DNA of 64,000 nucleotides from Dulcicalothrix desertica PCC 7102 (GCF_003991905.1 NZ_RSCL01000015.1:1-64000); one strand, 5' to 3'; counted from the stretch's first letter, positions 38,874 through 64,000 are shown. Notes: generated by a model from the sequence alone, not told the origin. Numbers and translations are program-made.

Positions 38874-39863
38874 TTAAGAGTTTCTTAATCTTGGGTCGCT
38901 GATTGCTTTTACACTACTAATAAATTTCATAATGTTTGAAGCATTTTTAGGAGTGAGTAGCCATATTAAAAGTAATTTAACTACTAATACTTGAGTATTC
39001 TTTCGCAATAGATTAAGTGGATTTAAGCAAATACCTTTCCATAATCTAATACTTGCTTTTTGAACTGCATTTTCAGTATTGATTTGATTGAAATATAGTT
39101 TACTTGTATATTGATATATATTAGAAATACCTTGACTTTTCAGGTATTGTAGTTCTAGAGGCGCCGATATAAAGGCTCTTTCCAATACTAAAAGTAAATA
39201 TTTTTCCATCACATCAACTTTGCTAGACATACCACCTAAAGACAAGCGATAGATGATTTGTGGTTTGGGTACAACGACGAATTTCCAGTTAGGTGCCAGT
39301 CTTAACCAGTAATCCCAATCCTCACAAGATTTAAGAGTGATATCAAATTCACCAACTGATTTTACTGCTTCAGTACGTATTAATACATTTGAGCCACTAG
39401 CAATAAAATTATTGACTAGCAAATGCTTATAAACATTACCTTCAAAACTGGCTTTGACACCCTGATGAAAATGCTTTCCTGCATTATCTACGCATATAGT
39501 CCAACTGTATGCGACACCTGCTTCCGGTGACTTTTTAAAAGCTTCTAGTTGTAATTCTAACTTATCATATGTCCATAAGTCATCTGCATCAATAAATGAA
39601 ATATACTCACCTGTCGCATGAGTTATACCTCTATTACGAGCCATTGATAAACCGCCATTTGGGTAAGAAAAAACTTGCAACCGAGAATCTTTTACTTCAT
39701 TTATAAGTTCTAATGTTTCATCTGTAGAACCATCGTTAATAAGAATTAATTCTAGATTAGAATAGGTCTGTTCTAGAACTGAATTTATTGTTTCTCTAAT
39801 TGTTTTCTCAGCATTGTAAGCAGGAATAATAACAGAGACTTTTGGTGTGGTTGTAATGTTCAT
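38874..39863 (-). CDS. Glycosyltransferase family 2 (paralog 5)
   Basis: VSVIIPAYNAEKTI...INDGSTD...IDADD. Confidence 0.8.
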   Translation of the reverse strand: MNITTTPKVSVIIPAYNAEKTIRETINSVLEQTYSNLELILINDGSTDETLELINEVKDSRLQVFSYPNGGLSMARNRGITHATGEYISFIDADDLWTYDKLELQLEAFKKSPEAGVAYSWTICVDNAGKHFHQGVKASFEGNVYKHLLVNNFIASGSNVLIRTEAVKSVGEFDITLKSCEDWDYWLRLAPNWKFVVVPKPQIIYRLSLGGMSSKVDVMEKYLLLVLERAFISAPLELQYLKSQGISNIYQYTSKLYFNQINTENAVQKASIRLWKGICLNPLNLLRKNTQVLVVKLLLIWLLTPKNASNIMKFISSVKAISDPRLRNS

Positions 39864-39898
39864 ATATATTGAAATTAAATTGATTATTGTTTAATTAC

Positions 39899-41191: not shown

Positions 41192-41199
41192 TACTTTTG

Positions 41200-42501
41200 T
41201 TAATTCATATAGACGCTTTGAAAACTTTCAGATTTAAATGTCAGGTGTTTTGGTTGACTTTGAAATGCAATTCCCATAAGAATTAATCCAGGGTAATATA
41301 AATAAGCTAATAAATCTAAGTTTTCAGCGAAGGAAAATACCATTAATATTAGTATAAAACTTAATGCCGCTCTAGCAATTTCACTTTTTTGGGCTATAAC
41401 TAATAGATATAAAAAAGTGCTAGTTATTGGTATTAAAAAAGCGAAAAAACCTACTAATCCTTTTATAAATAGTAAACCAACCCAGTTATGGTGTGAACCT
41501 ATTGGCATATTTGCTGTTCCAACAAAACCTTTTTCTGGCTGACTATGACCCCATATAGGAGCATCTTTAAAACGCTCAAGTGCCATTCTCGTTAAAACTG
41601 ATCTTACCCGTGAAGAACCTTGTCTAGAACTTACAAATTTATCTTCAAAGTCTCTATATAATCCAATAATAAAGCTCGAAGATATTCCTGATATAAAGCA
41701 GGTAGCACTACAGAGAATTTGTGTGTATGGACGATAAAAGTTAGTAAATAACCACATCAAGATTGCTACAGTTGGAAAACAAACAATAGATGTTCTAGCT
41801 GCTGTTAAATAACTTATAATAAGGCTTGCGATTATACCTATCCATCGCCATTTTTGAGTTTTTTCTTGAAGTGCAAAGAAAAAATACATTACAGCTAGTA
41901 AAGCTAATGCAGGAGACCAAGGTGCAAATAAAGTCAGACGAAAACCTTCTCCAAAATCAGCTTCTTTAAAATAAAGTACTACATCAAAATACATTTGACC
42001 ATTTTGAGTTATTCTTTCCAACGGTGAAGAGTAGATTAAGTTAGGAATTTTTAATAAGTAAGCTCCAACACTAATTGGTATAACAAATAGACTTTGTAAG
42101 CAGAGTATACAAACTGCTCGGTAAATTAATTGTGGACGAATTTTGAGACAGCAACCAGCTAACGGGAATAATGCAAATAATGCCCATTCTCTAGTCCAGT
42201 TTAGTACTCCTCGAATAATTGATCTAATGTCCTGACCAGAATTAATAGAACCTATATACCCACCAACTACCATTACAAGCATACAGATAATCCAAAGCCA
42301 TATAATCCAGGGTATTTTTATTTTTTCTTCCGCAGGAGTATCTGGTTTTTGATACCAAAGTTTTACACATAAGTAAAAAAGTAGTATCCAAGCAATTGTT
42401 GAGTTAACAATGTACAGCAAACCAGAAACATATAGAACATAAGTACCGACCATTGGATACCATATTAATCGTTCTTCAAAGTTCTGGGGTTTCATAACCA
42501 A
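41200..42501 (-). CDS. O-antigen ligase/polymerase family membrane protein (Wzy-like)
   Basis: 433 aa polytopic; periplasmic loop with HNWVGLLFIKG-type motif. Confidence 0.5.
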   Translation of the reverse strand: MVMKPQNFEERLIWYPMVGTYVLYVSGLLYIVNSTIAWILLFYLCVKLWYQKPDTPAEEKIKIPWIIWLWIICMLVMVVGGYIGSINSGQDIRSIIRGVLNWTREWALFALFPLAGCCLKIRPQLIYRAVCILCLQSLFVIPISVGAYLLKIPNLIYSSPLERITQNGQMYFDVVLYFKEADFGEGFRLTLFAPWSPALALLAVMYFFFALQEKTQKWRWIGIIASLIISYLTAARTSIVCFPTVAILMWLFTNFYRPYTQILCSATCFISGISSSFIIGLYRDFEDKFVSSRQGSSRVRSVLTRMALERFKDAPIWGHSQPEKGFVGTANMPIGSHHNWVGLLFIKGLVGFFAFLIPITSTFLYLLVIAQKSEIARAALSFILILMVFSFAENLDLLAYLYYPGLILMGIAFQSQPKHLTFKSESFQSVYMN

Positions 42502-42530
42502 TTTATTACCTCTTTATTAGTAGTTAATAT

Positions 42531-43931
42531 TTACTGCTCTTTTGCTGAAATTGTTGCCGGCACCAATTTCAACTTGCTTGACCGTGAATACATTGTTAAT
42601 ATTGCCGTCATCGATAAGATTGAAGCTAATCCTGTGCCCAGTAAAACAAGATTTTTTTGTGGTGAATTAGGTTCATCTGGCAAGCTTGGGTCTGTTAAAA
42701 GTTGAACTTCTGGATAAGAACCGTAAAAATTAGATTTATTTACATCCAAACTTGCAAGGCTTGATGAATAAACAGCTTCAGCTATTTGCATTTCTCTTTT
42801 TAGAGCTTCTAACGTGGATTTATGCTTTGCTAAAGTTTCTACTCTTGTTTGTAGTTGAGCAATTTGACCATCTAACTCCTGAATGGTCGCTTTAGATTCT
42901 TGTTGGTCTACACCAGCTGTTACTATTCCTTCCACAAAAGTTTGCTGGGCGCCATCACCACTAAGTTTATTTAGCAACTGCTGGCCAATAGGATAGCCTA
43001 AAAGAGATTGGCTACGGCTTAATAAAGCAGATTTTGCTAAGTCTTGTTTGCCTTGTGCGTCAATAATAAGAGGATGCCTAGTAAGAAATTTAGATTGTAG
43101 AAGTACTAAATTTGATGTTGCTTCACTATAGTCTTTAAGATGCTGTCTGAATACTTGGTCTGATTGTAAAATAAAAGATTGAGTAGCTTCTGGAGTTGAT
43201 ATTTTAAAATTGCTCGATAATTCGCGTAAACGGGCGCCACTTTGTTGTTGTTTAACCGCAGCTCCATCCCTTTCTTTACGTAATATTTCTAAATTAGTCG
43301 CTAAATCTTCAAGCTGTTTATCGGTTACCAACCCAGACTTATTTCTATAATCAAAAAATCTTTTTTGAGCTACTTCTAATTTGCGCTGAGAATCTCTAAG
43401 AGAAGTTTGTATTTTACCTTCTTTCTGCGCTGATTCTTTACGTCTAAGCAAAGTAAGCCTTTCTTGGAAAGCCTGATAAAATGCCCATGACTTCGCTTGT
43501 GCTTGCTGTGGTTCATCTCCTTTGAACTCCAAGTTCATGACTGTTGTTTTGTCTATTATTTTGAATCTTGGCTTGCCAAATTTTTCTAAAGTCATATTGA
43601 CTTTAGCCGCTGCCGCTTTGTGAACTACAGGACTTTCTATAATTATTTTGTAATTCTCTCTTGGATCTTGAATAGTATTTTCGTAAGGAGATACAGCTTG
43701 AGAAGATGCGGTTCCACGTTCAGGAAGATTGATGTTTGTATATGAAATAGTTCCAGGAAGAGAAAGGGATAACTTACTTGTATAACTAGGCTTGGCATTA
43801 TTTAAATAAAATAAAGCTGCACCCCACATTGCACAGTTGGTAATAATTATTAGCAACAAGTAATTTACCCAACGCTTTGGAGCTTTTGGCAATTCTAGAG
43901 AACTTGCATTTTTAGAAATTAGCTGTGTCAT
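42531..43931 (-). CDS. Polysaccharide chain-length determinant (Wzz/GumC family, no kinase domain)
   Basis: 466 aa; TM1 near the N-terminus, long coiled-coil periplasmic region, C-terminal TM (GLASILSMTAILTMY). Confidence 0.55.
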   Translation of the reverse strand: MTQLISKNASSLELPKAPKRWVNYLLLIIITNCAMWGAALFYLNNAKPSYTSKLSLSLPGTISYTNINLPERGTASSQAVSPYENTIQDPRENYKIIIESPVVHKAAAAKVNMTLEKFGKPRFKIIDKTTVMNLEFKGDEPQQAQAKSWAFYQAFQERLTLLRRKESAQKEGKIQTSLRDSQRKLEVAQKRFFDYRNKSGLVTDKQLEDLATNLEILRKERDGAAVKQQQSGARLRELSSNFKISTPEATQSFILQSDQVFRQHLKDYSEATSNLVLLQSKFLTRHPLIIDAQGKQDLAKSALLSRSQSLLGYPIGQQLLNKLSGDGAQQTFVEGIVTAGVDQQESKATIQELDGQIAQLQTRVETLAKHKSTLEALKREMQIAEAVYSSSLASLDVNKSNFYGSYPEVQLLTDPSLPDEPNSPQKNLVLLGTGLASILSMTAILTMYSRSSKLKLVPATISAKEQ

Positions 43932-44790
43932 ACGGCATTAATGAAGAATATATTATTTTCGAGTCAAAATATTGGTGATGCTGTTATCAAAAAACTTAAA
44001 AATTATCTTAATTCTAATAGAAACCCTCATTACTTGCTCTCTTCGTATTGTTTTGATATTTTAAATTTATGACAGTATCTGCCAATGATTTACTAAAGTT
44101 TCAATCAATAAGCGCTTTAAACTTTTAAATAATACTCAGAAGATATCCATGCCAACGCGGTTTTTGGAACAACTGTGCAGTTATCCAAGAATGCTATTTC
44201 TGTCACTTCTTTGCGCGTATATATTGATTAAGTTTATTGCCTTTTTTGAGCAACTCAAATTAGATCAAAATTATTACTATGCTGGGTCAAACTACAAAAC
44301 TTTAATCAGTCTTGTTCATTTTTTTAAACACGATTCGATGCACTTAAGCGTTGTGTAAACTCTAACTAATGACTAACAGTATGCTTTCAGCTACATAAGC
44401 CTTCGGTAAATACACTTCTTAGTTGCTAGCAGCTGACAAAAACTGACATACCTGCTCTTCCTGATGTATAAAACATGATTTAACTTTGTCTAACTTTAAT
44501 TAGTGTATAACTTATTCACCGTAAGTCAACTGTGTGTAACATTTTGACGGTAAAAACTTTATACTCTTTACATTTGATTTGTAAATTCTTTACAATTCTG
44601 TCTCCGTCTTACAGAAACTACGAAAAGCTAACACGAAAATTTTAGTGTTATGTATATGAATAGACATTTTTCCTAAAATTTCTGCTTAAAACATTAGTTA
44701 TAGTTTATACTTTCTTTCTACGTAGTATTTAGGTTAAAGCAAGGATAAACTTTAATATTAATTAGTTTTATAAACAGTTCAGTATTAATT

Positions 44791-45375
44791 ATGCCTGATA
44801 AAGTACAACTACGCTCTTCTCTACTTCAAGCACGTACGGCACTACCAGTAATTGAATGGCGCCAGAAAAGCGATGATATTTGTAGTCACCTCACTAATTC
44901 GCAATTACTAACGAACGCCAAAACCATTCTTGCGTATTTTAGCTTTCGTACTGAACCTGATTTAAGTTCTTTATTTTATGACTCTAACTACCGTTGGGGA
45001 TTTCCGAGCTGTGTTGGTAAAACTATGTCTTGGCATGTTTGGAAACCTGGAGATTCTACGAACACAGGCGCCTATGGTATTACCGAACCAAACAGCGATG
45101 CCCCTATAATTGAACCAAACGAAGTTGACTTGATTTTAGTACCCTGTGTTGCTTGCGACCAATTAGGATACCGTTTAGGCTACGGTGGCGGCTATTATGA
45201 CCGAATGCTAAGTCAACCTAAGTGGCAATCTATACCAACTATTGGAATAGTGTTTGAATTTGCTTACTTGCCACAATTGCCTATTGAAACTTGGGATAAA
45301 CCATTACAAAATATCTGTACAGAAAACAAGTGTAGAGACGCGATTAATCGCGTCTCTACATTAAATTACGTCTAA
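44791..45375 (+). CDS. 5-formyltetrahydrofolate cyclo-ligase
   Basis: 194 aa; GYGGGYYDR motif and LRSSLLQAR N-terminus typical of MTHFS. Confidence 0.8.
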   Translation: MPDKVQLRSSLLQARTALPVIEWRQKSDDICSHLTNSQLLTNAKTILAYFSFRTEPDLSSLFYDSNYRWGFPSCVGKTMSWHVWKPGDSTNTGAYGITEPNSDAPIIEPNEVDLILVPCVACDQLGYRLGYGGGYYDRMLSQPKWQSIPTIGIVFEFAYLPQLPIETWDKPLQNICTENKCRDAINRVSTLNYV

Positions 45376-45383
45376 AATCTAAA

Positions 45384-46217
45384 ATGCTACTAAAAAACCC
45401 TACAATAAAAACTTTATTGATGTATGGAGTGCTGACTTCCACTGCACTCGTAACACTCTTTCCATTACTATGGCTGGTTGGTACCGCTTTTAAATCGCAA
45501 ACAGAGAATATATTTCAATCTCCACCACAATTATTGCCTGCCCAACCTACTTTTGATAACTTTGTCACTGTTTGGCAAACTAACCCTTTTGGGCAATACC
45601 TGTTCAATAGTACTATCGTGGCGGTCTTGACTGTTTGCTTGAATTTAATATTTTGTGCTTTAGCTGCTTACCCATTAGCCAGATTATCTTTTCCAGGACG
45701 TGACTGGATATTTACTGCCATAGTCACGACAATCATGATTCCTTTTCAAATTGTCATGATTCCACTATATATATTGACGGTGCAAATTGGGCTGCGGAAT
45801 ACCTACTTGGGAATGATTTTCCCAAGTTTGGCTTCCGCATTTGGTATATTTCTGTTGAGACAAGCTTTTTTGGGTGTTCCTAAAGAACTTGAAGAAGCAG
45901 CGCGGATGGACGGATGTTCAGAATTGGGACTGTGGTGGAATATTATGTTGCCAGCAATCCGTCCGGCACTTGTTACCCTGGCTATTTTTGTATTTATTGG
46001 AGCTTGGAGTGATTTTCTATGGCCCCTCATCGTTATTCAAGATGAGAGTTTATATACATTGCCGCTTGGAGTGGCAAAATTAGCGGGAACGTTCTCACTC
46101 GACTGGCGTTTGGTAGCTGCGGGTTCTGTAATTTCGATTGCCCCTGTGATGATATTATTTTTATTTCTACAACGATATATTGTACCCACTGATGCTGGCA
46201 GCGGAGTCAAAGGGTAA
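45384..46217 (+). CDS. Carbohydrate ABC transporter permease (MalG-like), orphan
   Basis: EAA loop EAARMDGCSELGLWWNIMLPAIRPAL; no cognate ATPase or binding protein adjacent. Confidence 0.8.
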   Translation: MLLKNPTIKTLLMYGVLTSTALVTLFPLLWLVGTAFKSQTENIFQSPPQLLPAQPTFDNFVTVWQTNPFGQYLFNSTIVAVLTVCLNLIFCALAAYPLARLSFPGRDWIFTAIVTTIMIPFQIVMIPLYILTVQIGLRNTYLGMIFPSLASAFGIFLLRQAFLGVPKELEEAARMDGCSELGLWWNIMLPAIRPALVTLAIFVFIGAWSDFLWPLIVIQDESLYTLPLGVAKLAGTFSLDWRLVAAGSVISIAPVMILFLFLQRYIVPTDAGSGVKG

Positions 46218-54901: not shown

Positions 54902-56662
54902 ATGTTATTACTTAATAAACGAATAAATTATTATCTTTTAGCGACTTGTACATGCTTATCCTATTTAGGATTGCAATCTCAAGCAAACGGGCAAATAAGT
55001 ACAGAACCAGTTGATAAGAATGAAATTACACAAATGCCTGATTTGGCGCCGTTTCAGCTAAAGCAAGAAGCATCTGATGCAAAGCCAGTTTTAGAGTATA
55101 CAAGTCGTGCAGAACTGATACGTAGGTTACAGCGTCGGATAGCTGCATCAGATTTAGTGTCTTCACCAGCAATTGCTACAGGTACACAAGAGACATTTCC
55201 CATTAAAGACGTGCAAATTTTAGGTAGTACAGTCTTTAAAAAATCGGAGATTGCGGAAATCGTTAAACCTTATATTGGTAGACAAGCTCGTTTTGAAGAA
55301 CTGCTAGCAATTCGGAGCGCGGTTACAGACTATTACACTAAGCGTGGTTACACAACTTCAGGCGCCTTTTTACCACCGCAAGATGTTTCAAGTGGAGTTG
55401 TGAATGTTCAAGTAGTAGAAGGTGAGCTTGAAAGGGTAGAAATTCAGGGACTAAGACGGTTACGTCCTAGTTATGTGCGCGACCGAATTCGTGATAAAGC
55501 AGGCGCCCCAATTAACTTACGTCGTTTAGAAACCGCGCTTCAATTACTTCAAGTAGACCCTTTGTTTACTTCAGTACAAGCAGAACTAAAAGCTGGAAGC
55601 ACACCAGGACGAAGTATTTTAGCGCTAAATCTTAGAGAAGCACGACCAATAACAACTTCGTTTACAGTGGAAAACCGTGATTCCCCCAGCGTTGGTTCGG
55701 TTCGTGGTACTTCGTCGTTAAGCTATCAAAACTTACTAGGTTTTGGCGATAAATTTACTGCCCAAGTTGGTTATACAAGTGGCGCCAATAGTTATGACCT
55801 TGGTTACAGTTTTCCTATCAATGCACGGGATGGGTCTATAAGCTTTCGTTATGCAGACGGCAACAGTAAAATTATCGAAGAACCATTTTCACCGCTTGAT
55901 ATTCTTGGTCGTACAAAAACCTTTTCACTTGGCTACCGTCAACCAATAGTAAACACTCCAAGTAGCGAATTTACACTCGGTTTCTCAGCAGATTTACGCG
56001 AAAGTCAAACTTATTTGCTCAAAGATATTCCCTTTTCATTCTCAACAGGGCCAGAAGATGGAAACTCAAGAGTAACCGTATTACGATTTAGTCAAGATTG
56101 GATTAACCGCACACCAAACCGCGTATTAGCTGCACGCTCACAATTTAGTTTAGGAATAGGCGCATTAGGAGCAACAGTAAATGATATTGGTGTTGATGGT
56201 AGGTTTATGAGTTGGGTTGGTCAATTTCAGTGGGTACAGAATTTAGGAAGAAATTTTATTGGGGTTGCACGAGTTGCTACTCAGCTAACCCCAGACTCGC
56301 TATTGCCTTTGGAGCAATTTAGTATTGGAGGTGTTGATACAATTCGCGGTTATCGCCAAAACCAATTTGTCGCTGATAACGGTATTACAAGCTCGTTTGA
56401 ACTACGAATTCCAGTAGTAAATCAGCCTGGTGGGTTTGGTAATATTCAGGTGGCGCCGTTTGTGGATGTTGGTAAAGTCTGGAATAATAGTGGTCAATCT
56501 GTTGATACTAGTATTTTTGCCAGCACTGGTTTAGGTTTACGTTGGCAAATCGGTGGCTTCGTGACTCGTTTAGACTGGGGTATTCCTTTAACCTCTATTT
56601 CTCGACAAGGTGACTCACTCCAAGACAATGGTTTATTCTTTTCTTTGATGTATCAGCCGTAA
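54902..56662 (+). CDS. ShlB/FhaC/HecB family two-partner-secretion outer-membrane transporter (TpsB)
   Basis: 586 aa; signal peptide, POTRA region, C-terminal beta-barrel ending in an aromatic residue (MYQP); no TpsA substrate gene adjacent. Confidence 0.65.
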   Translation: MLLLNKRINYYLLATCTCLSYLGLQSQANGQISTEPVDKNEITQMPDLAPFQLKQEASDAKPVLEYTSRAELIRRLQRRIAASDLVSSPAIATGTQETFPIKDVQILGSTVFKKSEIAEIVKPYIGRQARFEELLAIRSAVTDYYTKRGYTTSGAFLPPQDVSSGVVNVQVVEGELERVEIQGLRRLRPSYVRDRIRDKAGAPINLRRLETALQLLQVDPLFTSVQAELKAGSTPGRSILALNLREARPITTSFTVENRDSPSVGSVRGTSSLSYQNLLGFGDKFTAQVGYTSGANSYDLGYSFPINARDGSISFRYADGNSKIIEEPFSPLDILGRTKTFSLGYRQPIVNTPSSEFTLGFSADLRESQTYLLKDIPFSFSTGPEDGNSRVTVLRFSQDWINRTPNRVLAARSQFSLGIGALGATVNDIGVDGRFMSWVGQFQWVQNLGRNFIGVARVATQLTPDSLLPLEQFSIGGVDTIRGYRQNQFVADNGITSSFELRIPVVNQPGGFGNIQVAPFVDVGKVWNNSGQSVDTSIFASTGLGLRWQIGGFVTRLDWGIPLTSISRQGDSLQDNGLFFSLMYQP

Positions 56663-56735
56663 ATTTATTGTGATGAGACTTTAGGCGCCTGCCTAATCGT
56701 TAAAAAGAGGTTAAGATTTAAGTCTTAGCTTGCAT

Positions 56736-56772
56736 AGCGCGTTCTCACCAGAGAGCGCGCCTTTTGTATTTG
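56736..56772 (+). terminator. Rho-independent terminator AGCGCGTTCTC-ACCA-GAGAGCGCGC + CTTTTGTATTTG
   Basis: Read directly, downstream of the TpsB gene. Confidence 0.55.
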
Positions 56773-56790
56773 TATAATTTAATAAACTCT

Positions 56791-56878
56791 CTTGTGGAAT
56801 GTCTTGTGGAATGGGCATCCTTGCCCGTTTCAAATTTAAGACGGGCAGGGATGCCCGCTCCACAAGAGTTTTTTAATA
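56791..56878. repeat. Palindromic MITE-like element (full copy 2) with 12-bp tandem TCTTGTGGAATG x2
   Basis: CTTGTGGAATGGGCATCCTTGCCCGT...ACGGGCAGGGATGCCCGCTCCACAAG. Confidence 0.7.
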
Positions 56879-56892
56879 CTTTTACAAAATAT

Positions 56893-56930
56893 CGGAACGT
56901 TGGGATTTGAACCCAAGACCTCCACTACCC
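56893..56930 (-). other. 3' fragment of a tRNA gene (T-arm TTGGGTTCAAATCCCAA + acceptor 3' strand), att-like junction
   Basis: The reverse complement reads GGAGGTCTTGGGTTCAAATCCCAACGTTCCG; no D-arm or 5' half is present upstream. Confidence 0.5.
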
Positions 56931-57060
56931 CAAGGACAATCGCTGATGACCTGCGACCAAACCCGAAGCTTTTTCTTCTTAGCTTTTTACCTTTGCCAAC
57001 CTTTCAATAAAAATACCAACGTATACCATTATCGTACCATGAGATGTCTTTTACAAGCAT

Positions 57061-57205
57061 TAGTCAATAGTTTGTTTCTAGATAATAGTCAATAGTTAAT
57101 CATGAGTAATAGTCAATAGTAGTGCCTTGATTCCCAGGTAATAGTTAAGGGTTAATTATGAGTAACAGTCAATAGTTTATTACTATATAATAGTCAAGAG
57201 TTATT
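57061..57205. repeat. Iteron-like direct repeats, five copies of about TAATAGTCAATAGTT
   Basis: TAGTCAATAGTTTG / AATAGTCAATAGTTAATC / TAATAGTCAATAGTAGTG / TAACAGTCAATAGTTTAT / TAATAGTCAAGAGTTAT. Confidence 0.7.
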
Positions 57206-57395
57206 TTTTTAGATAAAAGCAATGTTTGTGTGTAAACAAAGTCCGCGCATAAAAACCGCACATACATTGTCGCAGACAAACCCATTGATTAACTGTTAAT
57301 TATTTTTTATGGCGCAATACTCAAAAGTATCATTGTTTATACTGAAAAACTGATAGTATCGCGTATAACTATAAAGTCTTTCAGTAGAAAACTTT

Positions 57396-57881
57396 ATGAG
57401 CTTAACCCAAGATACAGAAATTAGAGGTTTGTCAATCGCTGGATGCTACGCTTTATTAATCGCTGAAGGAACCAAAACTATTGAGTTACGGGTATGGCAA
57501 GAAAAAACTTACAGAGGTTTGGTAATGCTGCACTGTAGCAGTGGTTCCGGGTATGATTTTTCGTATGAGCATTGGGAAATATCAAAGGATGAATGTCCTA
57601 AAAGTTCAATCATTGGTGTAGCTACGCTGGTTGATTGCATAAAATACGACACTGCTAAAAAATGGGATGCTGACCGAGAGAAGTTTCAATGGGATATTTC
57701 CTACAAACAAGCTTTAGAAGAATATCAAGGTAAACCAATCTACGGTCATGTTTTTGAAAATCCCTGTGTTTTTGACCCTCCAATATTAAATATTAAAGGA
57801 ACATTTCGTTATTGGGAACCAAAAACAGACCCACAGATTGAAGCGGCAGAACAAGTAAAGTTTTTGATTAGCAATATTTAA
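57396..57881 (+). CDS. ASCH (PUA-like) domain protein
   Basis: 161 aa; N-terminal KTIELRVW beta-barrel motif typical of the ASCH fold; tentative. Confidence 0.4.
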   Translation: MSLTQDTEIRGLSIAGCYALLIAEGTKTIELRVWQEKTYRGLVMLHCSSGSGYDFSYEHWEISKDECPKSSIIGVATLVDCIKYDTAKKWDADREKFQWDISYKQALEEYQGKPIYGHVFENPCVFDPPILNIKGTFRYWEPKTDPQIEAAEQVKFLISNI

Positions 57882-57884
57882 CCG

Positions 57885-58193
57885 TTAGTTTTCTCCGGGT
57901 TTTATCCTATCAATGCCTCGATGATAACCGCGATTATAACCTTGACGATAAACCTTTAAAATTTCTTCGCTACAATCTTTTGGCAAGTCCACAGAAACAT
58001 CTTCCTCGAAATGTTCACCGCAATAATCGCTACTTACATACTGCGATAATAAATCTGGGTTACTAAAGATTCTACTAGCGAAGTCACCTGGTAGATGTCG
58101 TACTTGTGCGTAAATCCATTTTTTAAAACTGTGTTCTTTTACTAGATTATTCACTATTTGTTGCAGGTTTTCCATTGTTCTTACCCTGGTCAA
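57885..58193 (-). CDS. Hypothetical protein (102 aa)
   Basis: ORF only. Confidence 0.3.
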   Translation of the reverse strand: MTRVRTMENLQQIVNNLVKEHSFKKWIYAQVRHLPGDFASRIFSNPDLLSQYVSSDYCGEHFEEDVSVDLPKDCSEEILKVYRQGYNRGYHRGIDRIKPGEN

Positions 58194-58444
58194 ATTTAAA
58201 AAACAATACCCTCGAAGAATATTATTCTACGACAAAACCAAAAAAAACATAAGCCCAGAGTTACAGTCGCAGCAAAGCTGCTTCTGGGGCATACCTGCCG
58301 CAGTCGTAGATATCCCACGAAAAAACCATGAGAATTTCTCATGGAATTTCATTGGTTTCTACGAAACTCCGCTAATTTATCACCAAATTCCACGAAGTTT
58401 CACAGACCTATCATCGATATCCCATTGGGCTTTTATCGAGGCTT

Positions 58445-58801
58445 TTAGCGATTGTTTTTGGTATAAGCCAAGATAACAGCTAAAGCTTCATCCTCGGTTT
58501 CGTAACTGGAACGCCAATCAAGGAAAAGGAGCGCTGGATGTTTCTTTTGGTGACTTCGATAGCGAGTTGGTCGTTGAATAGGCGTATGAGTTACTTCCCA
58601 GATTTGTCCTGCGTAGGGAAAAAGTTCACCGATTTGTGGCACAAAGTTAAAGCTAAGAAGGTGAACGCCAACGCACTTTTGAACAATATCCTGGGGTGTT
58701 TTATTGCGAACATCTTCGGGTAATCTGAGGACGCACCCAATCGTTATCCGCTGTTGGTTTAAAACAACCTTTTCATAAACCTTTCCTAGATTCTCAAGCA
58801 T
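58445..58801 (-). CDS. Hypothetical protein (118 aa)
   Basis: ORF only; last gene of the minus-strand array. Confidence 0.35.
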   Translation of the reverse strand: MLENLGKVYEKVVLNQQRITIGCVLRLPEDVRNKTPQDIVQKCVGVHLLSFNFVPQIGELFPYAGQIWEVTHTPIQRPTRYRSHQKKHPALLFLDWRSSYETEDEALAVILAYTKNNR

Positions 58802-58870
58802 TGATAGACTCCTTAGTTAATATTTATTAATTTAACAGAAAAGCATTTTGTAAAAGCTAAAATGCCTATT

Positions 58871-59031
58871 GCCCCGCCATCGCCCCAGTTTTTATCTATT
58901 ATTTAATATTTTTGGGGCGGAACAGTGATTTTTCTGGGGCGGAACCTTCGGGCGGACTGGGGCGGAGCCTGTAATGCTTATCGCCCCGTTGTACCCCTGT
59001 CTGTTTTTGAGTTTTCGCCCCAGGTAAAAGC
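58871..59031. promoter_or_regulatory. Cluster of 7-8 GGGGCGG (or complement CGCCCC) motifs in 160 bp of otherwise AT-rich DNA, including direct repeats TGGGGCGGAAC x2, GGGGCGGAGC, GGGCGGACTG
   Basis: Read directly; lies between two co-oriented minus-strand genes. Confidence 0.5.
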
Positions 59032-59037
59032 AAGGTC

Positions 59038-60879
59038 TTATCCTTTGTACGAAATTGTGTAAGTATCAGCGGATATTTCTATTAAGAAGTTGGTCAAGGA
59101 AAGTAGCTTAAGTATTTCTCGAACATCCTGTACTGATAATCTATTGCCATCATTAGTAAAATCCATAAAGTACCGACTCTTGCGAATATGTTCCACGGTA
59201 ACTTCCGATAATTCTTTTTGAATTAAATAACCTTTGACTGCATCTGCGAGTTTAATAATGTAATCAAAATGGCTGGCTTCATGGTTAGGTTGAGAGCTTG
59301 GTTTAAGAATTTCTTCGGTAAATTCCTCATCATGTAATATGTCAGAGGAAGTTTCGCTAATAACAGGTTCGTTGGTGGTTTTATTGGATTCCCAAAGCTT
59401 TCTATAATTTTGATATTCAGCGTAGACAGAACTAGGGACAACTCCCAAAGTCCAATTATTATAGTTACCAAGCACTATTGGTTCATCGGTGGCAACGTCT
59501 ATTGAATCAAGCTGAGATTTCAACAATGAGCGTTTACCATTGTCGCTAATCAAGAAATTATTTCCTAGGGCTAGTTCGATAAATTCTCTCTTGCCATTCT
59601 TCGCTAAGAATATCATATCACCCACAGAACGAGCAGAGGCACTGCCCATGAAAGGTAAATCTTGGACGTTTGATGAATGGCTACTGACAAAAACAGCGCT
59701 ATTATATTCTCGACCCACAAGCCAATATTCGTTAAGTAAAGTCATCAAGTGTTCGTACAGCGGTAAACAATCAAAAGACGCTTCGCTGGCTTCTTTCTTG
59801 CTGTCAAACACTGCATAATTTTCGGGGTTAATGAATTTACCTTTAGTACCAGTCTCAAGGTATTTTTGCATTGTTAGAAAATCATCCAAGAATAATCTGC
59901 TGATATTTCCTGTGTGACTTGTTGAACCATCAATGAATTTAATGATTTCAACAGCAGCGGTAACAGCACCAGATTTAACACTAATACATTTGTCAGATAC
60001 TCCGCGAAAAGCTTCTATATCGCTTTTCTTGACTACTACAGCTAGGCTTTTAAACTTTGACCCATATCGTTGTTTTAAAGCACCCCAAGCTGTACCAAGA
60101 AACGTTGTTTTACCGCTTCCTGGTGCAGCTAATATTACACAACCTCCAAGGACAGAATCATCGGCACGGTTAACTAGTGAATCTCTAATAGAGATTGCAT
60201 TAGCGAATAAATCAGTGTTGCATACCGGATTATTAGCGTTGAAACTATCTTTAGGACTATTTGCAGTAGATGTTAATATATTTGTTTTTTGAGCATCACC
60301 CACTGTTTGCTTCCCTTGAATTAAATCTAGTATTTGCAGCGGTTTTAATCGTAATGCACTAGCACAGTAAGTAAGTGCTGCATCCCAAGAATCCACACTT
60401 CGACCAATCAATTTATTTTCAAAAAGTTGTCCTGTAGATGCTTCATATAAACTTTCTAAGAAAATGTCAGTGCTGGTGCAATGCCATAACCCAGCCCAAT
60501 TATCGAGTGGTGCCTTGGATAAAGCAATCTCATATTTTTTCAATATTTCAATTACAGGTGTCTCAAGTTTATTCTTAAAAACAGAACCACCGACAGTTGC
60601 CAAAGTAAAAACACCAAGGATAGGTATCGCCACTGGTGTAATCATCAAACTAGCTGTTGCAAAAATTGCTGATGCAATCGATGTCCAACTCGTGAAATTT
60701 TTTGCGTTTTCTGCATCATTCTCGCGTTCGCTGATATTTCTACAAAGCTCACCTAAAAACTTTCTCTTTGATTCAAGCGAATCAACATCGTTAAATTGTA
60801 GCCCAGATTTAAATAATAGTTCAAAAGAATTTTTTCCTGATTCAGTCAGTGCCAGCGTTTTTACTGTTAAATTAGTCAT
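59038..60879 (-). CDS. P-loop NTPase with RecA/DnaB-like (AAA_25/RepA-like) core and N-terminal membrane-anchoring segment
   Basis: 613 aa; Walker A ILAAPGSGKTTFLG, Walker B RLFLDDF, downstream AVFVSSHSS (DnaB H3-like); hydrophobic stretch at residues 60-100. Confidence 0.45.
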   Translation of the reverse strand: MTNLTVKTLALTESGKNSFELLFKSGLQFNDVDSLESKRKFLGELCRNISERENDAENAKNFTSWTSIASAIFATASLMITPVAIPILGVFTLATVGGSVFKNKLETPVIEILKKYEIALSKAPLDNWAGLWHCTSTDIFLESLYEASTGQLFENKLIGRSVDSWDAALTYCASALRLKPLQILDLIQGKQTVGDAQKTNILTSTANSPKDSFNANNPVCNTDLFANAISIRDSLVNRADDSVLGGCVILAAPGSGKTTFLGTAWGALKQRYGSKFKSLAVVVKKSDIEAFRGVSDKCISVKSGAVTAAVEIIKFIDGSTSHTGNISRLFLDDFLTMQKYLETGTKGKFINPENYAVFDSKKEASEASFDCLPLYEHLMTLLNEYWLVGREYNSAVFVSSHSSNVQDLPFMGSASARSVGDMIFLAKNGKREFIELALGNNFLISDNGKRSLLKSQLDSIDVATDEPIVLGNYNNWTLGVVPSSVYAEYQNYRKLWESNKTTNEPVISETSSDILHDEEFTEEILKPSSQPNHEASHFDYIIKLADAVKGYLIQKELSEVTVEHIRKSRYFMDFTNDGNRLSVQDVREILKLLSLTNFLIEISADTYTISYKG

Positions 60880-60979
60880 ATGTTTATTTTTTTATAATTT
60901 CAAAGGTAGATATTTACGAATCTACCTTGATTTTTTATCTCAATGTATGATATATTAGGAATAAGCAACAGAATAAAGC

Positions 60980-61717
60980 CTAGAGCTTATATTTTTGTTC
61001 GGGTTCTTCGGAATCGCCTTCAATATTACCAAGCAAAGATATTGTGCTGGCAACAAACTTTAAAGCAAACTCAGGAGCAAACAAAGAAAGTACTCCAAGT
61101 ATTAAACCAAAAGGGTTAAAGTTACCGAGCAAAGTATAGGTAATCATCAGTGTCGTTTCGACAATGTAACTGATTCTACGCGCTGCTTTAAGGTTTTTGT
61201 GGTCATGAGACAACCATTGAGTTAAGCGCTGTTTTACAGAAACATCAGCGTCGGTTTCAAGGTTAGGATTCACGTTATTTTTTGAGTAATATTCCGCAAA
61301 TTGTCTGCTGATTTTCCACATCTCAGAACTAAGCTGAAAAGCATTCACGCAAACCCCGAAGAATAAACCAATAAAACCTGCCGAATAACCACCAATGGAA
61401 GATAACCCAAATAATCTACCGAACCATAACCCTAGTGCGTACCATTGACCAGTAGTCACGATTAAAACCACGCCAAATATAATGATTGACAGCAAACATG
61501 GCGTTGATGGTGAGCTAATAAATTTAATTGCGATAGAAAACAAGAAGACAGCAGTGTGTAAGCATTCGTGAAGAATCTCTGATAAAAGCGTTAGTAGTTT
61601 TCGGAGAATTCTAAATATTTTCTTGACAATTGCTGTAACTCCATCCCAGAATGTTTTTTTGGTTTTCTTTGCTGTATCACTTGATGAATTAGAACCAGGT
61701 TTATAATTTTGTTGCAT
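60980..61717 (-). CDS. Hypothetical integral membrane protein (245 aa, about 5 TM)
   Basis: ATG overlaps the stop of the upstream gene (TAATG). Confidence 0.4.
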   Translation of the reverse strand: MQQNYKPGSNSSSDTAKKTKKTFWDGVTAIVKKIFRILRKLLTLLSEILHECLHTAVFLFSIAIKFISSPSTPCLLSIIIFGVVLIVTTGQWYALGLWFGRLFGLSSIGGYSAGFIGLFFGVCVNAFQLSSEMWKISRQFAEYYSKNNVNPNLETDADVSVKQRLTQWLSHDHKNLKAARRISYIVETTLMITYTLLGNFNPFGLILGVLSLFAPEFALKFVASTISLLGNIEGDSEEPEQKYKL

Positions 61718-62220
61718 TAGTTGTCACCTTTCATTGATAATTGATTTTGAACTTCTTTTATACTGAAAATCCGTGTAACAGTTACCTCGCCATTCGAGTA
61801 AACAACATTAAGGAATTGTTTTGTTTTTGGTACGTAGACGCAACTTGTAGGAATCTTCCCGGTTTCTGTACCTTCGACTGCGATAACATCGTTTATTTTC
61901 AGCGGATAATTAGCTTTATTCTGCCAGCAGGTATCGCTCTTAACATGTTTCGCGATATTAACCAGCGCTCTCTGCCGTGAACTTATCGCTGTTTGCGAAG
62001 AAACATTCGCTGATATTTGCTGGGTCATTCCATAACTAAATATTGAGAAATTACCTAGCACTCCCACCAGAATAATTGTATTGAGATGTTTTTTTAAAGT
62101 TTGAATCATTGCGCTTATTCTTCGGTTAATTGATGGATTATTTTTTACATGTTCAAGAAACATCTGTGAACTGGTTACAGCCCCGCCAACAAATCCAACT
62201 TCGCTAGCGGCTGTAACCAT
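61717..62220 (-). CDS. Hypothetical membrane-anchored protein (167 aa)
   Basis: One TM helix (IILVGVLGNFSIFSY); translationally coupled to the next gene. Confidence 0.4.
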   Translation of the reverse strand: MVTAASEVGFVGGAVTSSQMFLEHVKNNPSINRRISAMIQTLKKHLNTIILVGVLGNFSIFSYGMTQQISANVSSQTAISSRQRALVNIAKHVKSDTCWQNKANYPLKINDVIAVEGTETGKIPTSCVYVPKTKQFLNVVYSNGEVTVTRIFSIKEVQNQLSMKGDN

Positions 62221-62231
62221 ATCTATAGACT

Positions 62232-62750
62232 TTAAGCAATGAGCTTTTTCTTGAACACTTGCATAAAAACCGCGAGTTCATCCTTGGCTGCAACTCCATC
62301 AGCTTGTAGTTTTACATCGTCGCCTAACAGCCCAGATACTTCTTGCAAAATGCCGCGTAATGTTTCACGCTCGTTTCTGTGTTCTTGCTGGAAATGTGCC
62401 GCTAGTTCTTTTTTCTTCTGATTGTGTATATGGATTATTGCTTGGTTTTCTACTTCAGCGATTGTTTCGTGGTACTGTAACCGCTCGACAATACTAAGCT
62501 TGATTTGATGCTCTAACACCTCGCTAGCAGTCAATACAATAGCCTTCTGATGTTCCAATGGCATATCTACTACATGTTCTATTGCAGTGGCTCCAATGCG
62601 CTTTGCATTAACTAGTTTGGTGATAATCTCGAACTCCGCATCAGTTAATTCTTTGACTGAATCCCAGTGATTGTTGGTTTCGGATAATATCATGCGGATT
62701 TCTTCAATAGATAACCCTGTTTCTGTCGAGACTTGATTAATGTTTTTCAT
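62232..62750 (-). CDS. Hypothetical helical protein (172 aa)
   Basis: ORF, acidic, coiled-coil-like. Confidence 0.35.
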   Translation of the reverse strand: MKNINQVSTETGLSIEEIRMILSETNNHWDSVKELTDAEFEIITKLVNAKRIGATAIEHVVDMPLEHQKAIVLTASEVLEHQIKLSIVERLQYHETIAEVENQAIIHIHNQKKKELAAHFQQEHRNERETLRGILQEVSGLLGDDVKLQADGVAAKDELAVFMQVFKKKLIA

Positions 62751-62786
62751 TTTGTAAAATCCTTTTTAGTAAATTTATTGAATGTT

Positions 62787-63107
62787 TTAGTGTTTGAACC
62801 CGGTTTGCTTCCGGTAAGCATACTTTGAAAAATCCGCTGGACTAGCTTTGATTTTGTCAACGATGAATTTCTTGTTCTTAAAAACTTTGAAGGCATCGTT
62901 AATTTGAATTAAAACCCAACATTGGTAGCGAGTCAGCGGTAAACGTTCTGTGTGAGTTTCGCGGTAATCCTCAATTAATATTTTTGCCATCCGCTGATAA
63001 CGATGCAAGGTAGCTGCACCCACGTTTAATATTTGTGATAAATCTTTACCGAGCGTAAACTCTGGTAAACTTGTAATGTCAAACTGTAATAAATCTGTTG
63101 ATAACAC
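62787..63107 (-). CDS. Putative HTH DNA-binding protein (Xis/MerR-like), first gene of the minus-strand array
   Basis: 106 aa; GKDLSQILNVGAATLHRYQRMA resembles an HTH; directly downstream of the operator-like repeats. Confidence 0.35.
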   Translation of the reverse strand: MLSTDLLQFDITSLPEFTLGKDLSQILNVGAATLHRYQRMAKILIEDYRETHTERLPLTRYQCWVLIQINDAFKVFKNKKFIVDKIKASPADFSKYAYRKQTGFKH

Positions 63108-63134
63108 CTGTGTTTTTTCTCCTGTGATTGTTTG

Positions 63135-63200
63135 ATGGAAGTTCGTGGAAGTTCGTGAAAGTTCGTGAGATATTCTCTTGGTTTATCCGTGAGATATTTA
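63135..63200. promoter_or_regulatory. Operator-like direct repeats GGAAGTTCGTG x3 and CGTGAGATATT x2
   Basis: Read directly, immediately upstream of the HTH gene start (63107). Confidence 0.5.
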
Positions 63201-63291
63201 ACAGTAAAAAAAACGAGATTTGATAATCGGTAATTGTTTGAAATGCGTCTCTGTTGTTTTTACGCTTCTGTTATTAGTTTACCACATTTAA

Positions 63292-63520
63292 GATGCAATG
63301 TGCAACTTAATAGAGATTTTTTTTGGCTAAAACCTTTGTTATTTAAAGGTTTTAGCAGTGATGCAATCAGCACATCAAAACTAAGTTTTTATTTAGAATA
63401 TAGCCATAGTAAAGGTTTCACCGATTAACCCACTGGGAAAATGCTAAGATTAATGCACTGATGCAAACTGCACATCAAAACTAAGGTTTACTTTTTTAGC
63501 TGATGCACAATGCTCACTTT
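63292..63520. promoter_or_regulatory. Divergent control region with two full copies of TGATGCAAnCnGCACATCAAAACTAAG plus two half-sites (GATGCAATGTGCAAC, TGATGCACAATGCTCAC)
   Basis: Read directly between the minus-strand array and the plus-strand RHH gene. Confidence 0.5.
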
Positions 63521-63760
63521 AAGGAAAACTATCTTGTAGATAAACCTATTAAAAATCTTATGTCTAATCAAAACACTGTTAAAAGAAGCACCATCAATAT
63601 ACCCACGAAAATCTACGGATTAATCCTTAGCCTATCCGCAAACCAAATTAGTTTTAGTTCCACAGTTGTCATGCTACTGACTGAAGCTCTAGAAGCCCGT
63701 GGTCTTATCGTTGATAAAATCGAACCAATCACTAAGGATGAACTTAAAGAAAAACCGTAA
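63503..63760 (+). CDS. Putative ribbon-helix-helix (CopG/Arc-like) DNA-binding protein
   Basis: KRSTINIPTKIYGLILSLSANQISFSSTVVMLLTEAL fits the beta-alpha-alpha RHH pattern; the start may be the internal Met (MSNQN). Confidence 0.35.
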   Translation: MHNAHFKENYLVDKPIKNLMSNQNTVKRSTINIPTKIYGLILSLSANQISFSSTVVMLLTEALEARGLIVDKIEPITKDELKEKP

Positions 63761-64000
63761 GCTTACTAAAAATGTTTATATATAAACAATAGCTGCGTAT
63801 TTACGGAGTTATTTTAGTATCTTTTTAGACATGTTTTCTCAAACCTTAATAGCTGCTTAGAATTTCGATACGGGGGGTTCCAAAACCCGTCCATAGCCCC
63901 CCTACTTTTTAAAGACTAATATAGTTGCTATGGACGGATTTTTTGCTTACTGTATAAGGCTTTCAGCGATTTAGCCCCTTGCAACGCTTGCAAGCTTTTT

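Follow-up and report, generated by a model that had tools for sequence, protein, structure and literature searches.

What is the DNA that follows a truncated tRNA gene near the right end of a 64,000-nt stretch of the Dulcicalothrix desertica PCC 7102 genome (the whole stretch is called the window below), and what might its genes do? Dulcicalothrix desertica is a filamentous cyanobacterium. An initial annotation had taken the DNA as an integrated, plasmid-derived or ICE-like element running past position 64000. This view is backed by a stop in synteny, an empty site in relatives, a 21-gene gap and plasmid-borne relatives, and the best explanation is probably a tRNA-inserted, plasmid-like element, which may carry a DNA-translocation module built around an ATPase and a repeat array.

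The insertion at tRNA-Pro(GGG)

Two features mark the left border:

56892-56933, minus strand: 3' fragment of tRNA-Pro(GGG), the copy of the att core that borders the insertion on its left (identity to intact genes and end of synteny)
57058-57202, plus strand: six direct 15-bp repeats TAATAGTCAATAGTT (repeat search of the window)

The fragment comprises the last 42 nt of the tRNA, from the anticodon loop to the discriminator; it contains the anticodon loop TTGGGGT, the 3' half of the anticodon stem, the variable loop, the T-arm, the 3' half of the acceptor stem and the discriminator A. Over 42-43 nt it matches the intact tRNA-Pro(GGG) genes of 26 cyanobacterial loci without a single difference, and neither ARAGORN nor Rfam found a complete tRNA at this site. 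A minus-strand tRNA 3' fragment, read as an att duplication, had already been proposed here; the fragment was correctly recognised, and its extent, given as 56893-56930, was too short.

Synteny of the left flank with five Calothrix genomes (88-95% identity) ends exactly at 56933, inside the anticodon loop. In Calothrix PCC 7103, HK-06, FI2-JRJ7 and NIES-4105, the left flank is followed by an intact tRNA-Pro and then by DUF1818, rpoZ and fasciclin genes, the full order of the right flank in relatives being DUF1818, a 182-aa gene, rpoZ, fasciclin and halogenase. Calothrix PCC 7716 matches over the left flank and the tRNA, its locus being cut about 240 nt past the tRNA. No integrase gene was found in the Calothrix right-flank gene run after the intact tRNA-Pro, and this uninterrupted locus is the empty site (attB). 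Comparison with relatives lacking the insertion had been suggested from the outset, and the Calothrix genomes supply exactly such a site. In D. desertica, the orthologues of the right-flank genes are found on the same 2.63-Mb contig under locus tags 056630-056670, and ShlB, on the left side, has tag 056410. Locus tags thus place 21 protein genes between ShlB and DUF1818, 9 of them in the window and 12 past 64000. Because relatives have an empty site and D. desertica has this 21-gene gap, the insertion is discrete, and we are highly confident that a discrete element has entered the tRNA gene. The initial annotation thus largely holds, and we take the segment to be the left 7 kb, or left third, of an approximately 21-gene plasmid-like mobile element of D. 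desertica PCC 7102.

No tyrosine or serine recombinase was found within 56893-64000 among the ORFs or by Pfam, and homology searches from two related integrases returned no D. desertica protein. Tyrosine recombinases are encoded by the related loci L035 and L046; by analogy with other tRNA-integrating elements, a tyrosine integrase and a complete tRNA re-formed with element DNA would be expected about 12 genes past 64000, next to DUF1818. One might instead suppose that nothing was inserted: the tRNA fragment would be a pseudogene in decay, or mark where a rearrangement broke the DNA, and the genes rightward of it would be ordinary chromosome. Neither an integrase nor a second att copy is seen in the stretch read (to 64000), which would suit this idea, as would the base composition: the initial annotation had described the DNA as AT-rich from the border to the end of the window, a switch that does not exist, since the GC content of 56-64 kb (0.365-0.39) falls inside the range of the remaining window (0.32-0.44). 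Against it, the fragment matches a functional tRNA gene at 42 of 42 positions without decay, and the same tRNA is broken at the identical base by another, integrase-bearing element. Moreover, the flanking gene order is otherwise kept, with exactly one 21-gene block in between, and homologues of the block's genes occur solely on plasmids and integrative elements. We therefore attach next to no probability to the absence of an insertion.

The TAATAGTCAATAGTT array begins 125 nt inside the att core. The five iterons noted initially were all recovered as copies with 0-2 mismatches, together with one degenerate copy, at a spacing of 24-32 nt; all matches with up to two mismatches in the 64-kb window fall in 57058-57202. 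Iteron origins typically have several direct repeats of 15-22 bp, phased at about 22 bp, beside a rep gene and an AT-rich unwinding region. No rep gene adjoins the array in the window. The repeats could be either origin iterons or recombinase/excisionase arm sites, and the latter reading is equally good since related integrases have an Arm-DNA-bind_2 domain. Most likely, they are binding sites of a replication or recombination protein predicted to be encoded past the window.

Gene array, repeats and a conserved triad

The rest of the segment contains the following features:

57396-57881, plus strand: ASCH-domain protein of 161 aa, DSM106972_056420 (Pfam PF04266, E 4e-6; phrog_3193, E 8e-16)
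57885-58193, minus strand: 102-aa protein, function unassigned; Calothrix NIES-4101 has a homologue downstream of its ATPase gene
58326-58344, minus strand: terminator-like hairpin followed by a T-run, after the 118-aa gene (from sequence)
58357-58399, minus strand: two AAnTTCGTrGAA copies upstream of the 102-aa gene (motif and inverted repeat)
58445-58801, minus strand: 118-aa protein, function unassigned; homologues come after the repeat array in loci L006 and L044
58867-59021, no strand assigned: about nine GGGGCG(A/G)/CGCCCC motifs, beginning 16 nt past the ATPase stop codon
59038-60879, minus strand: 613-aa ATPase, DSM106972_056450
60980-61717, minus strand: 245-aa polytopic membrane protein, its gene always directly upstream of the ATPase gene
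61717-62220, minus strand: 167-aa protein whose C-terminal domain, about 100 aa long, is conserved; the gene's stop overlaps the next gene's start (TAATG)
62232-62750, minus strand: 172-aa protein without family match, with its sole homologue in Calothrix FI2-JRJ7
62787-63107, minus strand: 106-aa HTH-like protein, first gene of the operon (from its sequence pattern)
63137-63167, plus strand: three tandem GGAAGTTCGTG copies, operator-like, 30 nt upstream of the HTH-like gene
63359-63516, plus strand: two 27-nt repeats TGATGCA..GCACATCAAAACTAAG, operator-like, between the divergent genes
63560-63760, plus strand: divergent RHH-like protein of 66 aa, or 85 aa from an upstream ATG (sequence pattern; phrog_8682, E 4e-5)

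The nine element genes in the window correspond to DSM106972_056420-056500. They include a co-directional minus-strand run of seven ORFs and a small divergent ORF, all annotated, in the order HTH-like protein, two unknowns, membrane protein, NTPase and two small proteins. The initial annotation had described this run and the divergent gene correctly, and had counted three unknowns after the HTH-like gene where there are two. Its claim of tight coupling through TAATG overlaps applies to one junction (61715-61719, between the 167-aa and 245-aa genes), the others having gaps of 11-100 nt. The ASCH assignment was borne out by a Pfam match above the cut-off, as were the three distinct repeat sets annotated as operator-like, namely those containing GGGGCGGA, GGAAGTTCGTG and GCACATCAAAACTAAG.

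The labels 'HTH' and 'RHH' found no confirmation in Pfam, PHROGs or PADLOC; in particular, neither the 106-aa nor the 66-aa protein matched a Pfam family. Their basis is the sequence pattern together with RHH_5 proteins at the same position in relatives, specifically the same divergent position in L001 and L004. Homologues of the HTH-like protein head the equivalent arrays in L004, L041 and L043, and we regard it as a candidate regulator. The 27-nt copies start at 63359 and 63459, 100 nt apart, with a weaker third copy at 63500. The AAnTTCGTrGAA motif at 58357-58399 is the same as that of the tandem repeats upstream of the HTH-like gene, and may constitute a shared operator in front of the 102-aa gene.

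Comparison of related loci identified a conserved core, the triad of the 167-aa protein, the 245-aa membrane protein and the 613-aa ATPase. The 245-aa protein, polytopic as first described, has relatives of 31-55% identity in 10 loci, Fischerella plasmid5 included. In the ATPase, a helical N-terminal region bearing a hydrophobic hairpin (a 37-residue stretch at 66-102) precedes a P-loop domain of FtsK/HerA fold (about 245-500) with Walker A PGSGKT and Walker B FLDD; residues 502-532 form a disordered linker to the winged helix at the C terminus (534-613). It had been annotated as a TM-anchored, RecA/DnaB-like P-loop NTPase. The Walker motifs and the hydrophobic stretch are indeed present, and the fold is FtsK/HerA-like, this class ranking above helicases in the fold comparison; the further description as replication-like gives way to that of a translocase-type ATPase. 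Neither the ATPase nor 20 distant relatives matched Pfam FtsK_SpoIIIE, and the profile of the ATPase's own family matched no PDB sequence.

Directly behind the ATPase gene, GGGGCGGA occurs in three exact copies, found nowhere else in the window, as part of the roughly nine-copy GGGGCG/CGCCCC array. Element-specific arrays of 7-9-bp repeats follow the ATPase gene directly at 11 of 15 loci by an exact 7-mer test (14 of 15 by eye), and in the L007/L042 pair the array motif is co-conserved with the winged helix. The sequence thus suggests that the GGGGCG array is a candidate clt-like cis site recognised by the ATPase winged helix. This membrane-anchored, FtsK-like protein, which comes with a DNA repeat array of its own, has not been described before; it resembles the system by which Streptomyces plasmids pump themselves from cell to cell.

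The triad was found only on mobile elements of filamentous cyanobacteria, including circular plasmids and one integrase/PrimPol/D5 element. Its closest full relative, the Richelia contig L035, has the order integrase, 84-aa protein, Prim-Pol and D5_N helicase, with iterons at the end of the helicase gene, followed by small genes. Carriers encode their own replication proteins (PrimPol/D5 with its own iterons, DnaB or DUF3987) and also bear ParA or actin-like partition genes, and MOB-suite typed the triad-carrying plasmids as non-mobilizable. Among the nine window proteins there were no Pfam matches to relaxase, VirB4 or VirD4 families, and none to capsid, portal, terminase or tail families in Pfam or PHROGs. 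Similarly, neither the window nor the complete Fischerella plasmid contained a relaxase, an oriT or T4SS partners.

Possible function of the triad

These results show that the element entered the chromosomal tRNA-Pro(GGG) gene by recombination within the anticodon loop, leaving the displaced 42-nt 3' end at 56892-56933. The element genes inside the window would form an operon under the small HTH-like and RHH-like regulators, each acting through its own operators. On the excised, double-stranded element the winged helix would bind the repeat array, and the ATPase, held at the membrane with its two partners, would pump DNA across the septum or the cell envelope. We infer a DNA-translocation role for the ATPase, and the assignment of the triad as a DNA-translocation or transfer module is plausible, if tentative.

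Other functions can be imagined for the same proteins. If the ATPase were a replication initiator or helicase and the adjacent repeats origin iterons, the triad would tether replication to the membrane, and a model for this is offered by the P4 alpha protein, which binds ori/crr repeats through its C-terminal domain. Such a role is unlikely given the FtsK/HerA fold, the hydrophobic hairpin, the constant pairing with a polytopic membrane protein and the replication proteins that carriers already have. Closer to our preferred reading is a segregation device, in which a septum-anchored FtsK-like pump would read an array resembling a centromere and, as the septum closes at division, clear or pull copies of the element through it, serving partition and not horizontal transfer. 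It draws on the same architectural evidence as transfer and on the presence of the triad on plasmids, and FtsK and SpoIIIE do exactly this for chromosomes. Segregation and intercellular spreading are hard to tell apart because both amount to DNA translocation across the septum. The partition genes already in the carriers speak against this role, to which we likewise give a low probability.

A viral origin would make the locus a prophage or membrane-containing virus, its ATPase an FtsK/HerA-type packaging motor (PRD1 P9, STIV2 B204 or A32-like) accompanied by small membrane proteins. However, tblastn with the ATPase gave no match in 50,697 phage genomes, no relative was found in 2.9 million IMG/VR contigs by protein or by profile, and capsid or tail families were absent from all triad-proximal genes. 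Since the triad is on records deposited as plasmids, and such packaging ATPases are without a sequence-specific winged helix plus cognate array, we consider this very unlikely. Slimmer still is the chance that the mobile elements carry the triad for defence or exclusion, in the manner of a DptH/DndH-like membrane sensor ATPase or of an NTPase of the KAP type. PADLOC returned nothing significant, the triad sits in a conserved backbone position rather than a variable cargo spot, and an element-specific cis array co-conserved with the winged helix would be left unexplained.

Comparison with known systems

To our knowledge, TdtA, the transjugation DNA-donation ATPase of Thermus thermophilus ICETh1, has no winged helix paired with a cognate array. 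TdtA is proposed to push double-stranded DNA from the donor without a T4SS (PMC5365140). By its description, it resembles the present protein as a mobile-element-encoded, membrane-associated ATPase of the HerA/FtsK family (PMC5365140). Integrase-PrimPol/D5 islands, that is P4-like satellites and integrative plasmids, share the gene set of the Richelia relative and, with the window element, insertion in a tRNA gene. Unlike our element, they have no membrane ATPase triad, and a search of limited sensitivity found no P4-type modules in the readable part of D. desertica. TcpA of Clostridium perfringens pCW3 and the FtsK-like/VirD4-type coupling proteins (TrwB, Cag-beta) differ in that they work alongside a relaxase, an oriT and a T4SS of several proteins, and in having no sequence-specific winged helix. 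FtsK and SpoIIIE themselves read KOPS/SRS motifs through a gamma winged helix. In contrast, the ATPase described here is encoded by a mobile element, is much smaller without sequence homology, and has a single hydrophobic hairpin where those proteins have four or more transmembrane helices; its motifs lie in one array beside the gene and are not spread with polarity over the chromosome.

In function, the module might correspond to TraB/clt/Spd of Streptomyces or to FtsK acting on KOPS sites. There is no detectable sequence similarity to TraB or to the Tra proteins of AICEs: all AICEs by definition encode a Tra protein with an FtsK/SpoIIIE domain (PMC3429521), and the Pfam family FtsK_SpoIIIE that defines these proteins is unmatched here. 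The two partners show no relation to Spd proteins. The clt locus, a cis-acting set of short repeats (about 8 bp) that differs between elements and is read by each element's own Tra protein, is described as made of direct repeats, whereas the present repeats occur in both orientations. The cyanobacterial host is of Gram-negative type, having an outer membrane and septal junctions. Nevertheless, the likeness to TraB/clt/Spd and the AICEs (pSAM2, SLP1, pMEA300) extends over several levels (PMC4447253, PMC3429521). In both, insertion is site-specific and targets the 3' portion of a tRNA gene; both have a plasmid-type replication module, which in the Richelia relative includes Prim-Pol; both rely on a single membrane-associated FtsK-fold ATPase with a C-terminal winged helix and the same domain order (PMC4447253, PMC3429521). 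Short repeats particular to each element adjoin the ATPase gene, which is co-transcribed and translationally coupled with genes for small membrane proteins; relaxase and T4SS are lacking, and the host is multicellular and filamentous (PMC4447253, PMC3429521).

It is conceivable, though on balance doubtful, that filamentous multicellular cyanobacteria own a counterpart of TraB/clt: a three-protein membrane apparatus whose sequence-unrelated FtsK-fold ATPase would read an element-specific array through its winged helix and pump double-stranded plasmids, integrative elements and perhaps temperate-phage genomes between cells, along or between filaments, without relaxase or T4SS. Reports of FtsK-like conjugation or spreading systems come almost exclusively from hyphal Actinomycetales (PMC3429521). 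If correct, the cyanobacterial module would represent a second, independently evolved system of this kind tied to multicellular growth.

Insertion into a tRNA-Pro(GGG) gene

The initial annotation had read the right end of the window as an integrated element bordered by a tRNA 3' fragment, and comparison with related genomes supports this main reading. The features concerned are as follows.

54902-56662, ShlB/FhaC-family gene, left of the tRNA fragment
56802-56867, near-perfect hairpin (arms of 33 nt), immediately 3' of the tRNA fragment
56892-56933, leftward, 3' fragment of tRNA-Pro(GGG)
57058-57202, 15-bp repeats
58326-58344, hairpin
58867-59021, repeat array after the ATPase gene
59038-60879, minus strand, gene for the 613-aa ATPase
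61715-61719, stop-start overlap

Over 42-43 nt, from the anticodon loop TTGGGGT to the discriminator A, the window is 100% identical to intact tRNA-Pro(GGG) genes, a little longer than the fragment first described; beyond this it diverges from them completely. A 29-mer from the fragment, GGTCTTGGGTTCAAATCCCAACGTTCCGA, has a single occurrence in the window and none in shuffled sequence. It was found in 27 stretches from GTDB, searched at one genome per species, and in 26 of these it forms the 3' end of an intact tRNA-Pro(GGG). Neither ARAGORN nor Rfam at its gathering threshold called a complete tRNA at the fragment, and the window's two tRNAs both lie near 5 kb. Those two genes abut at 4980-5126; ARAGORN reported the first as 'tRNA-???' with a two-base anticodon read-out, and both are normal by Rfam (~50 bits each).

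The left flank aligns to Calothrix PCC 7716, HK-06, PCC 7103, FI2-JRJ7 and NIES-4105 at 88-95% identity. All five alignments end at 56933, and in all five genomes, which lack the insertion, an intact tRNA stands there at an uninterrupted site. A conserved upstream region follows it in four of the five loci, those extending past the tRNA (the PCC 7716 locus ends ~240 nt past it). Next, in the two loci examined (PCC 7103 and FI2-JRJ7), come DUF1818, a 182-aa gene, rpoZ and fasciclin, with a halogenase also in FI2-JRJ7 and no recombinase among these right-flank genes. None of them is present in the window; their D. desertica orthologues (DSM106972_056630, 056640, RUT02746 and RUT02747) lie on the same contig. 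Locus-tag bookkeeping via protein-cluster look-ups gave the size of the insertion: exactly 21 protein genes separate ShlB (056410, RUT02721) from DUF1818 (056630, RUT02743), nine in the window and 12 beyond it, the latter listed as proteins RUT02731-RUT02742 and WP_127083919-929. The synteny break at 56933 and this 21-gene block support a discrete, plasmid-like integrative element recombined into tRNA-Pro(GGG).

Since the tRNA reads leftward, its restored, complete gene is expected at the element's far right, adjoining DUF1818, and it is here that we infer an integrase and the second att copy. Searching by homology with the integrase of a Phormidesmis element at the same att site returned 126 matches, none from D. 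desertica; a concatenated query of the Richelia integrase C-terminus, PrimPol and D5 gave five matches only, a weak negative because concatenation probably harmed the word filter. At the DNA level, the whole region has no similarity to plasmids. AT-richness was rejected as a boundary signal: the DNA from the fragment to the window end had been described as AT-rich, but its GC content (0.365-0.39 over 56-64 kb) falls within the 0.32-0.44 of the rest. The lowest values, 0.32-0.35, below both the element and the remainder of the window, occur at 16000-22000 and 32000-46000, which may be other islands or foreign gene clusters.

Insertion into a tRNA gene is as such routine for an ordinary type of element. 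A Phormidesmis contig (JBHYED010000002.1; L016 1-5846 and L022 1423-8000 among the compared loci) records the same event with an unrelated element: an intact tRNA-Pro adjoins genes for a tyrosine integrase of 385 aa, which has an arm-binding domain, and for a primase-helicase of 772 aa; a repetitive, alanine-rich protein of 559 aa is encoded at the far end, and the contig also bears a tRNA fragment starting at the identical anticodon-loop position. The anticodon-loop site of tRNA-Pro(GGG) is therefore a recurrent integration hotspot in cyanobacteria.

The chromosomal side of the locus is also variable, since presence of the ShlB/FhaC-family gene differs among relatives: it occurs in D. desertica and Calothrix NIES-4105, is missing (alignment gap ~54963-56655) in Calothrix PCC 7716, HK-06 and PCC 7103, and is partly missing in FI2-JRJ7. 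The hairpin beside the fragment is chromosomal, being common to Calothrix PCC 7716; it probably either terminates the tRNA transcript or belongs to the palindromic repeats of cyanobacteria. MicroRNA-family matches at 56700-57400 (Rfam, relaxed threshold) fall on this palindrome and are spurious; the only other match from that scan was to a tmRNA fragment the size of a T-arm. Another short palindromic repeat, at 45328-45374, matches, in either orientation, the right flank of the Calothrix PCC 7103 tRNA (L033, ~7803-7849); it is probably a repeat dispersed in cyanobacterial genomes.

Genes and repeats of the element within the window

Exact look-ups showed locus tags rising consecutively rightward from ShlB/FhaC (056410) and the ASCH gene (056420) to the small divergent gene (056500); the 613-aa ORF is 100% identical to DSM106972_056450 on a 2.63-Mb contig of D. 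desertica PCC 7102. None of the nine element proteins shares its 90%-identity cluster with any other protein. The ASCH assignment holds above the Pfam threshold. All the others gave nothing above noise in Pfam, PHROGs, PADLOC or a PDB sequence search, and matches to DO-GTPase1, GajB, DUF334 and UPF0154 were discarded as sub-threshold noise. The HTH and RHH labels given earlier found no confirmation in any library, although relatives have RHH_5 proteins at the equivalent divergent position. Similarly, the tight TAATG coupling ascribed to the array of genes comes down to one stop-start overlap, with no further overlaps.

The three operator-like repeat sets are real. Copies of AAnTTCGTrGAA lie also upstream of the 102-aa gene, and the shared motif suggests that a single regulator serves two promoters. 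Promoter and terminator consensus scans performed no better than on shuffled sequence; the one feature retained from them was the hairpin at 58326-58344. The iterons are likewise genuine: five copies have at most two mismatches and a sixth is degenerate, their spacing is 24-32 nt, and no good match to the 15-bp repeat lies elsewhere in the window. Their motif differs from that of the array after the ATPase gene, so that a different protein would read them: a replication initiator encoded beyond the window, or the arm-binding functions of an integrase/excisionase.

The ATPase, its partners and the downstream array

The interest of the element lies in its conserved core rather than in the tRNA insertion. 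The P-loop NTPase, initially labelled RecA/DnaB-like, instead has an FtsK/HerA fold, with the corresponding domain order and a membrane segment. Its Walker A lysine is K257, and residues 534-613 make up the C-terminal domain, a winged helix. Its 77 homologues all belong to Nostocales genera (Calothrix, Rivularia, Richelia, Nostoc and Tolypothrix), and a profile search of 1.84 billion protein cluster representatives recovered only 102 family members. No Pfam domain exceeded threshold in 20 distant relatives. A phage origin was tested with negative outcome, there being no match in 50,697 phage genomes (INPHARED) or in IMG/VR. As far as traced, the family occurs on mobile elements of filamentous cyanobacteria and nowhere else.

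The best structural match to the ATPase model in a viral library (BFVD) was A0A482MIE7, a 712-aa protein of Nodularia phage vB_NspS-kac65v161, aligned over the full length of the model (E 4e-10, 14% identity). A protein with the architecture of the ATPase may therefore exist in one or more phages that infect Nostocales; P0258, considered as a candidate, is not that protein.

Three genes travel together across contexts, encoding the ATPase, the 245-aa membrane protein and a homologue of the 167-aa protein (C-terminal 100 aa).

Carriers of the three genes
Richelia chromosomal island: integrase, 84-aa protein, Prim-Pol, D5_N helicase and actin-like protein, then the three genes
Fischerella NIES-4106 plasmid5: circular, 24.5-kb; tyrosine recombinase, ParA-like protein, helicase
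Nostoc: plasmid pNLP3
Further elements: ParM-like, DUF3987, resolvase or DnaB genes
Two further contexts: phage-type neighbours

In one metagenomic locus (L007 17488-19782), such an element with a small serine resolvase adjoins the genes for the NiFe hydrogenase small and large subunits. The arrangement is reminiscent of hupL in heterocyst-forming cyanobacteria, a gene interrupted by elements that a recombinase excises.

Approximately nine GGGGCG/CGCCCC motifs follow the ATPase gene, beginning 16 nt past its stop codon. Apart from pNLP3, wherever a relative's locus has enough downstream sequence, a similar array occupies the same place, each with its own motif.

Examples of array motifs in relatives
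Richelia: GGGTGACA
Fischerella plasmid: CGCCACAC
Other relatives: CCAACA, CCGTTAACGG, GCGTCAACG, GGTGTAGAG, AGGAAC, GCGGTCAG and TTGCGGCA

In an exact 7-mer test of 15 loci, the 200 nt after the gene gave the maximum of the whole locus, or tied for it, in 11; the arrays were degenerate in three, and pNLP3 had none after its ATPase gene. The position of the array, its specificity and its conservation are direct observations. A second repeat type occurs in Richelia (L035 11693-12059, JAAUTV010000099.1), where GGTTACATG iterons run from the 3' end of the gene for the D5_N primase-helicase into the sequence that follows; these look like a P4-style origin, separate from the array after the ATPase gene.

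The loci L007 and L042 share the motif GGTGTAGAG; their ATPases are only 45% identical, whereas the winged-helix segments are 66% identical. Joint conservation of motif and winged helix suggests that a protein and its site have been selected as a pair, but the motif may have been kept for another binding protein.

A predicted DNA-transfer system

The most economical reading of the three genes, in our analysis, is that the ATPase, anchored in the membrane and probably forming a ring, would dock through its winged helix onto the array once the element is excised as double-stranded DNA. Its motor would then translocate this DNA, with both partner proteins contributing to the passage; the direction of movement and its biological purpose, namely transfer, are likewise predicted. 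A role in replication or partition of the element is less favoured, because genes for both functions are already present on the carriers and the plasmids bearing the three genes are without a known relaxase; both points favour transfer.

If the family does move DNA, it would explain the spread of many 'non-mobilizable' plasmids and islands of Nostocales, and would open a new route for gene transfer in cyanobacteria and perhaps yield a tool for their genetics. Single-ATPase transfer of double-stranded DNA would then have arisen more than once in multicellular bacteria.

In Streptomyces, TraB binds 8-bp direct repeats in clt and forms a hexameric pore; together with translationally coupled Spd membrane proteins it spreads plasmids through the mycelium, and SpdB2 homologues are found on actinophages too (PMC4447253). 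In AICEs, which are reported almost only from hyphal Actinomycetales, this mode of transfer is coupled to integration at tRNA genes and, in some of them, to replication genes of Prim-Pol type (PMC3429521). In the literature searched, mostly outside subscription journals, no comparable cyanobacterial system is described. In fold, domain order and cognate-looking array, the ATPase family matches the logic of FtsK/KOPS and Streptomyces TraB/clt. The ATPase, its two partners and the array are an undescribed family with an architecture parallel to FtsK/TraB and a predicted function.
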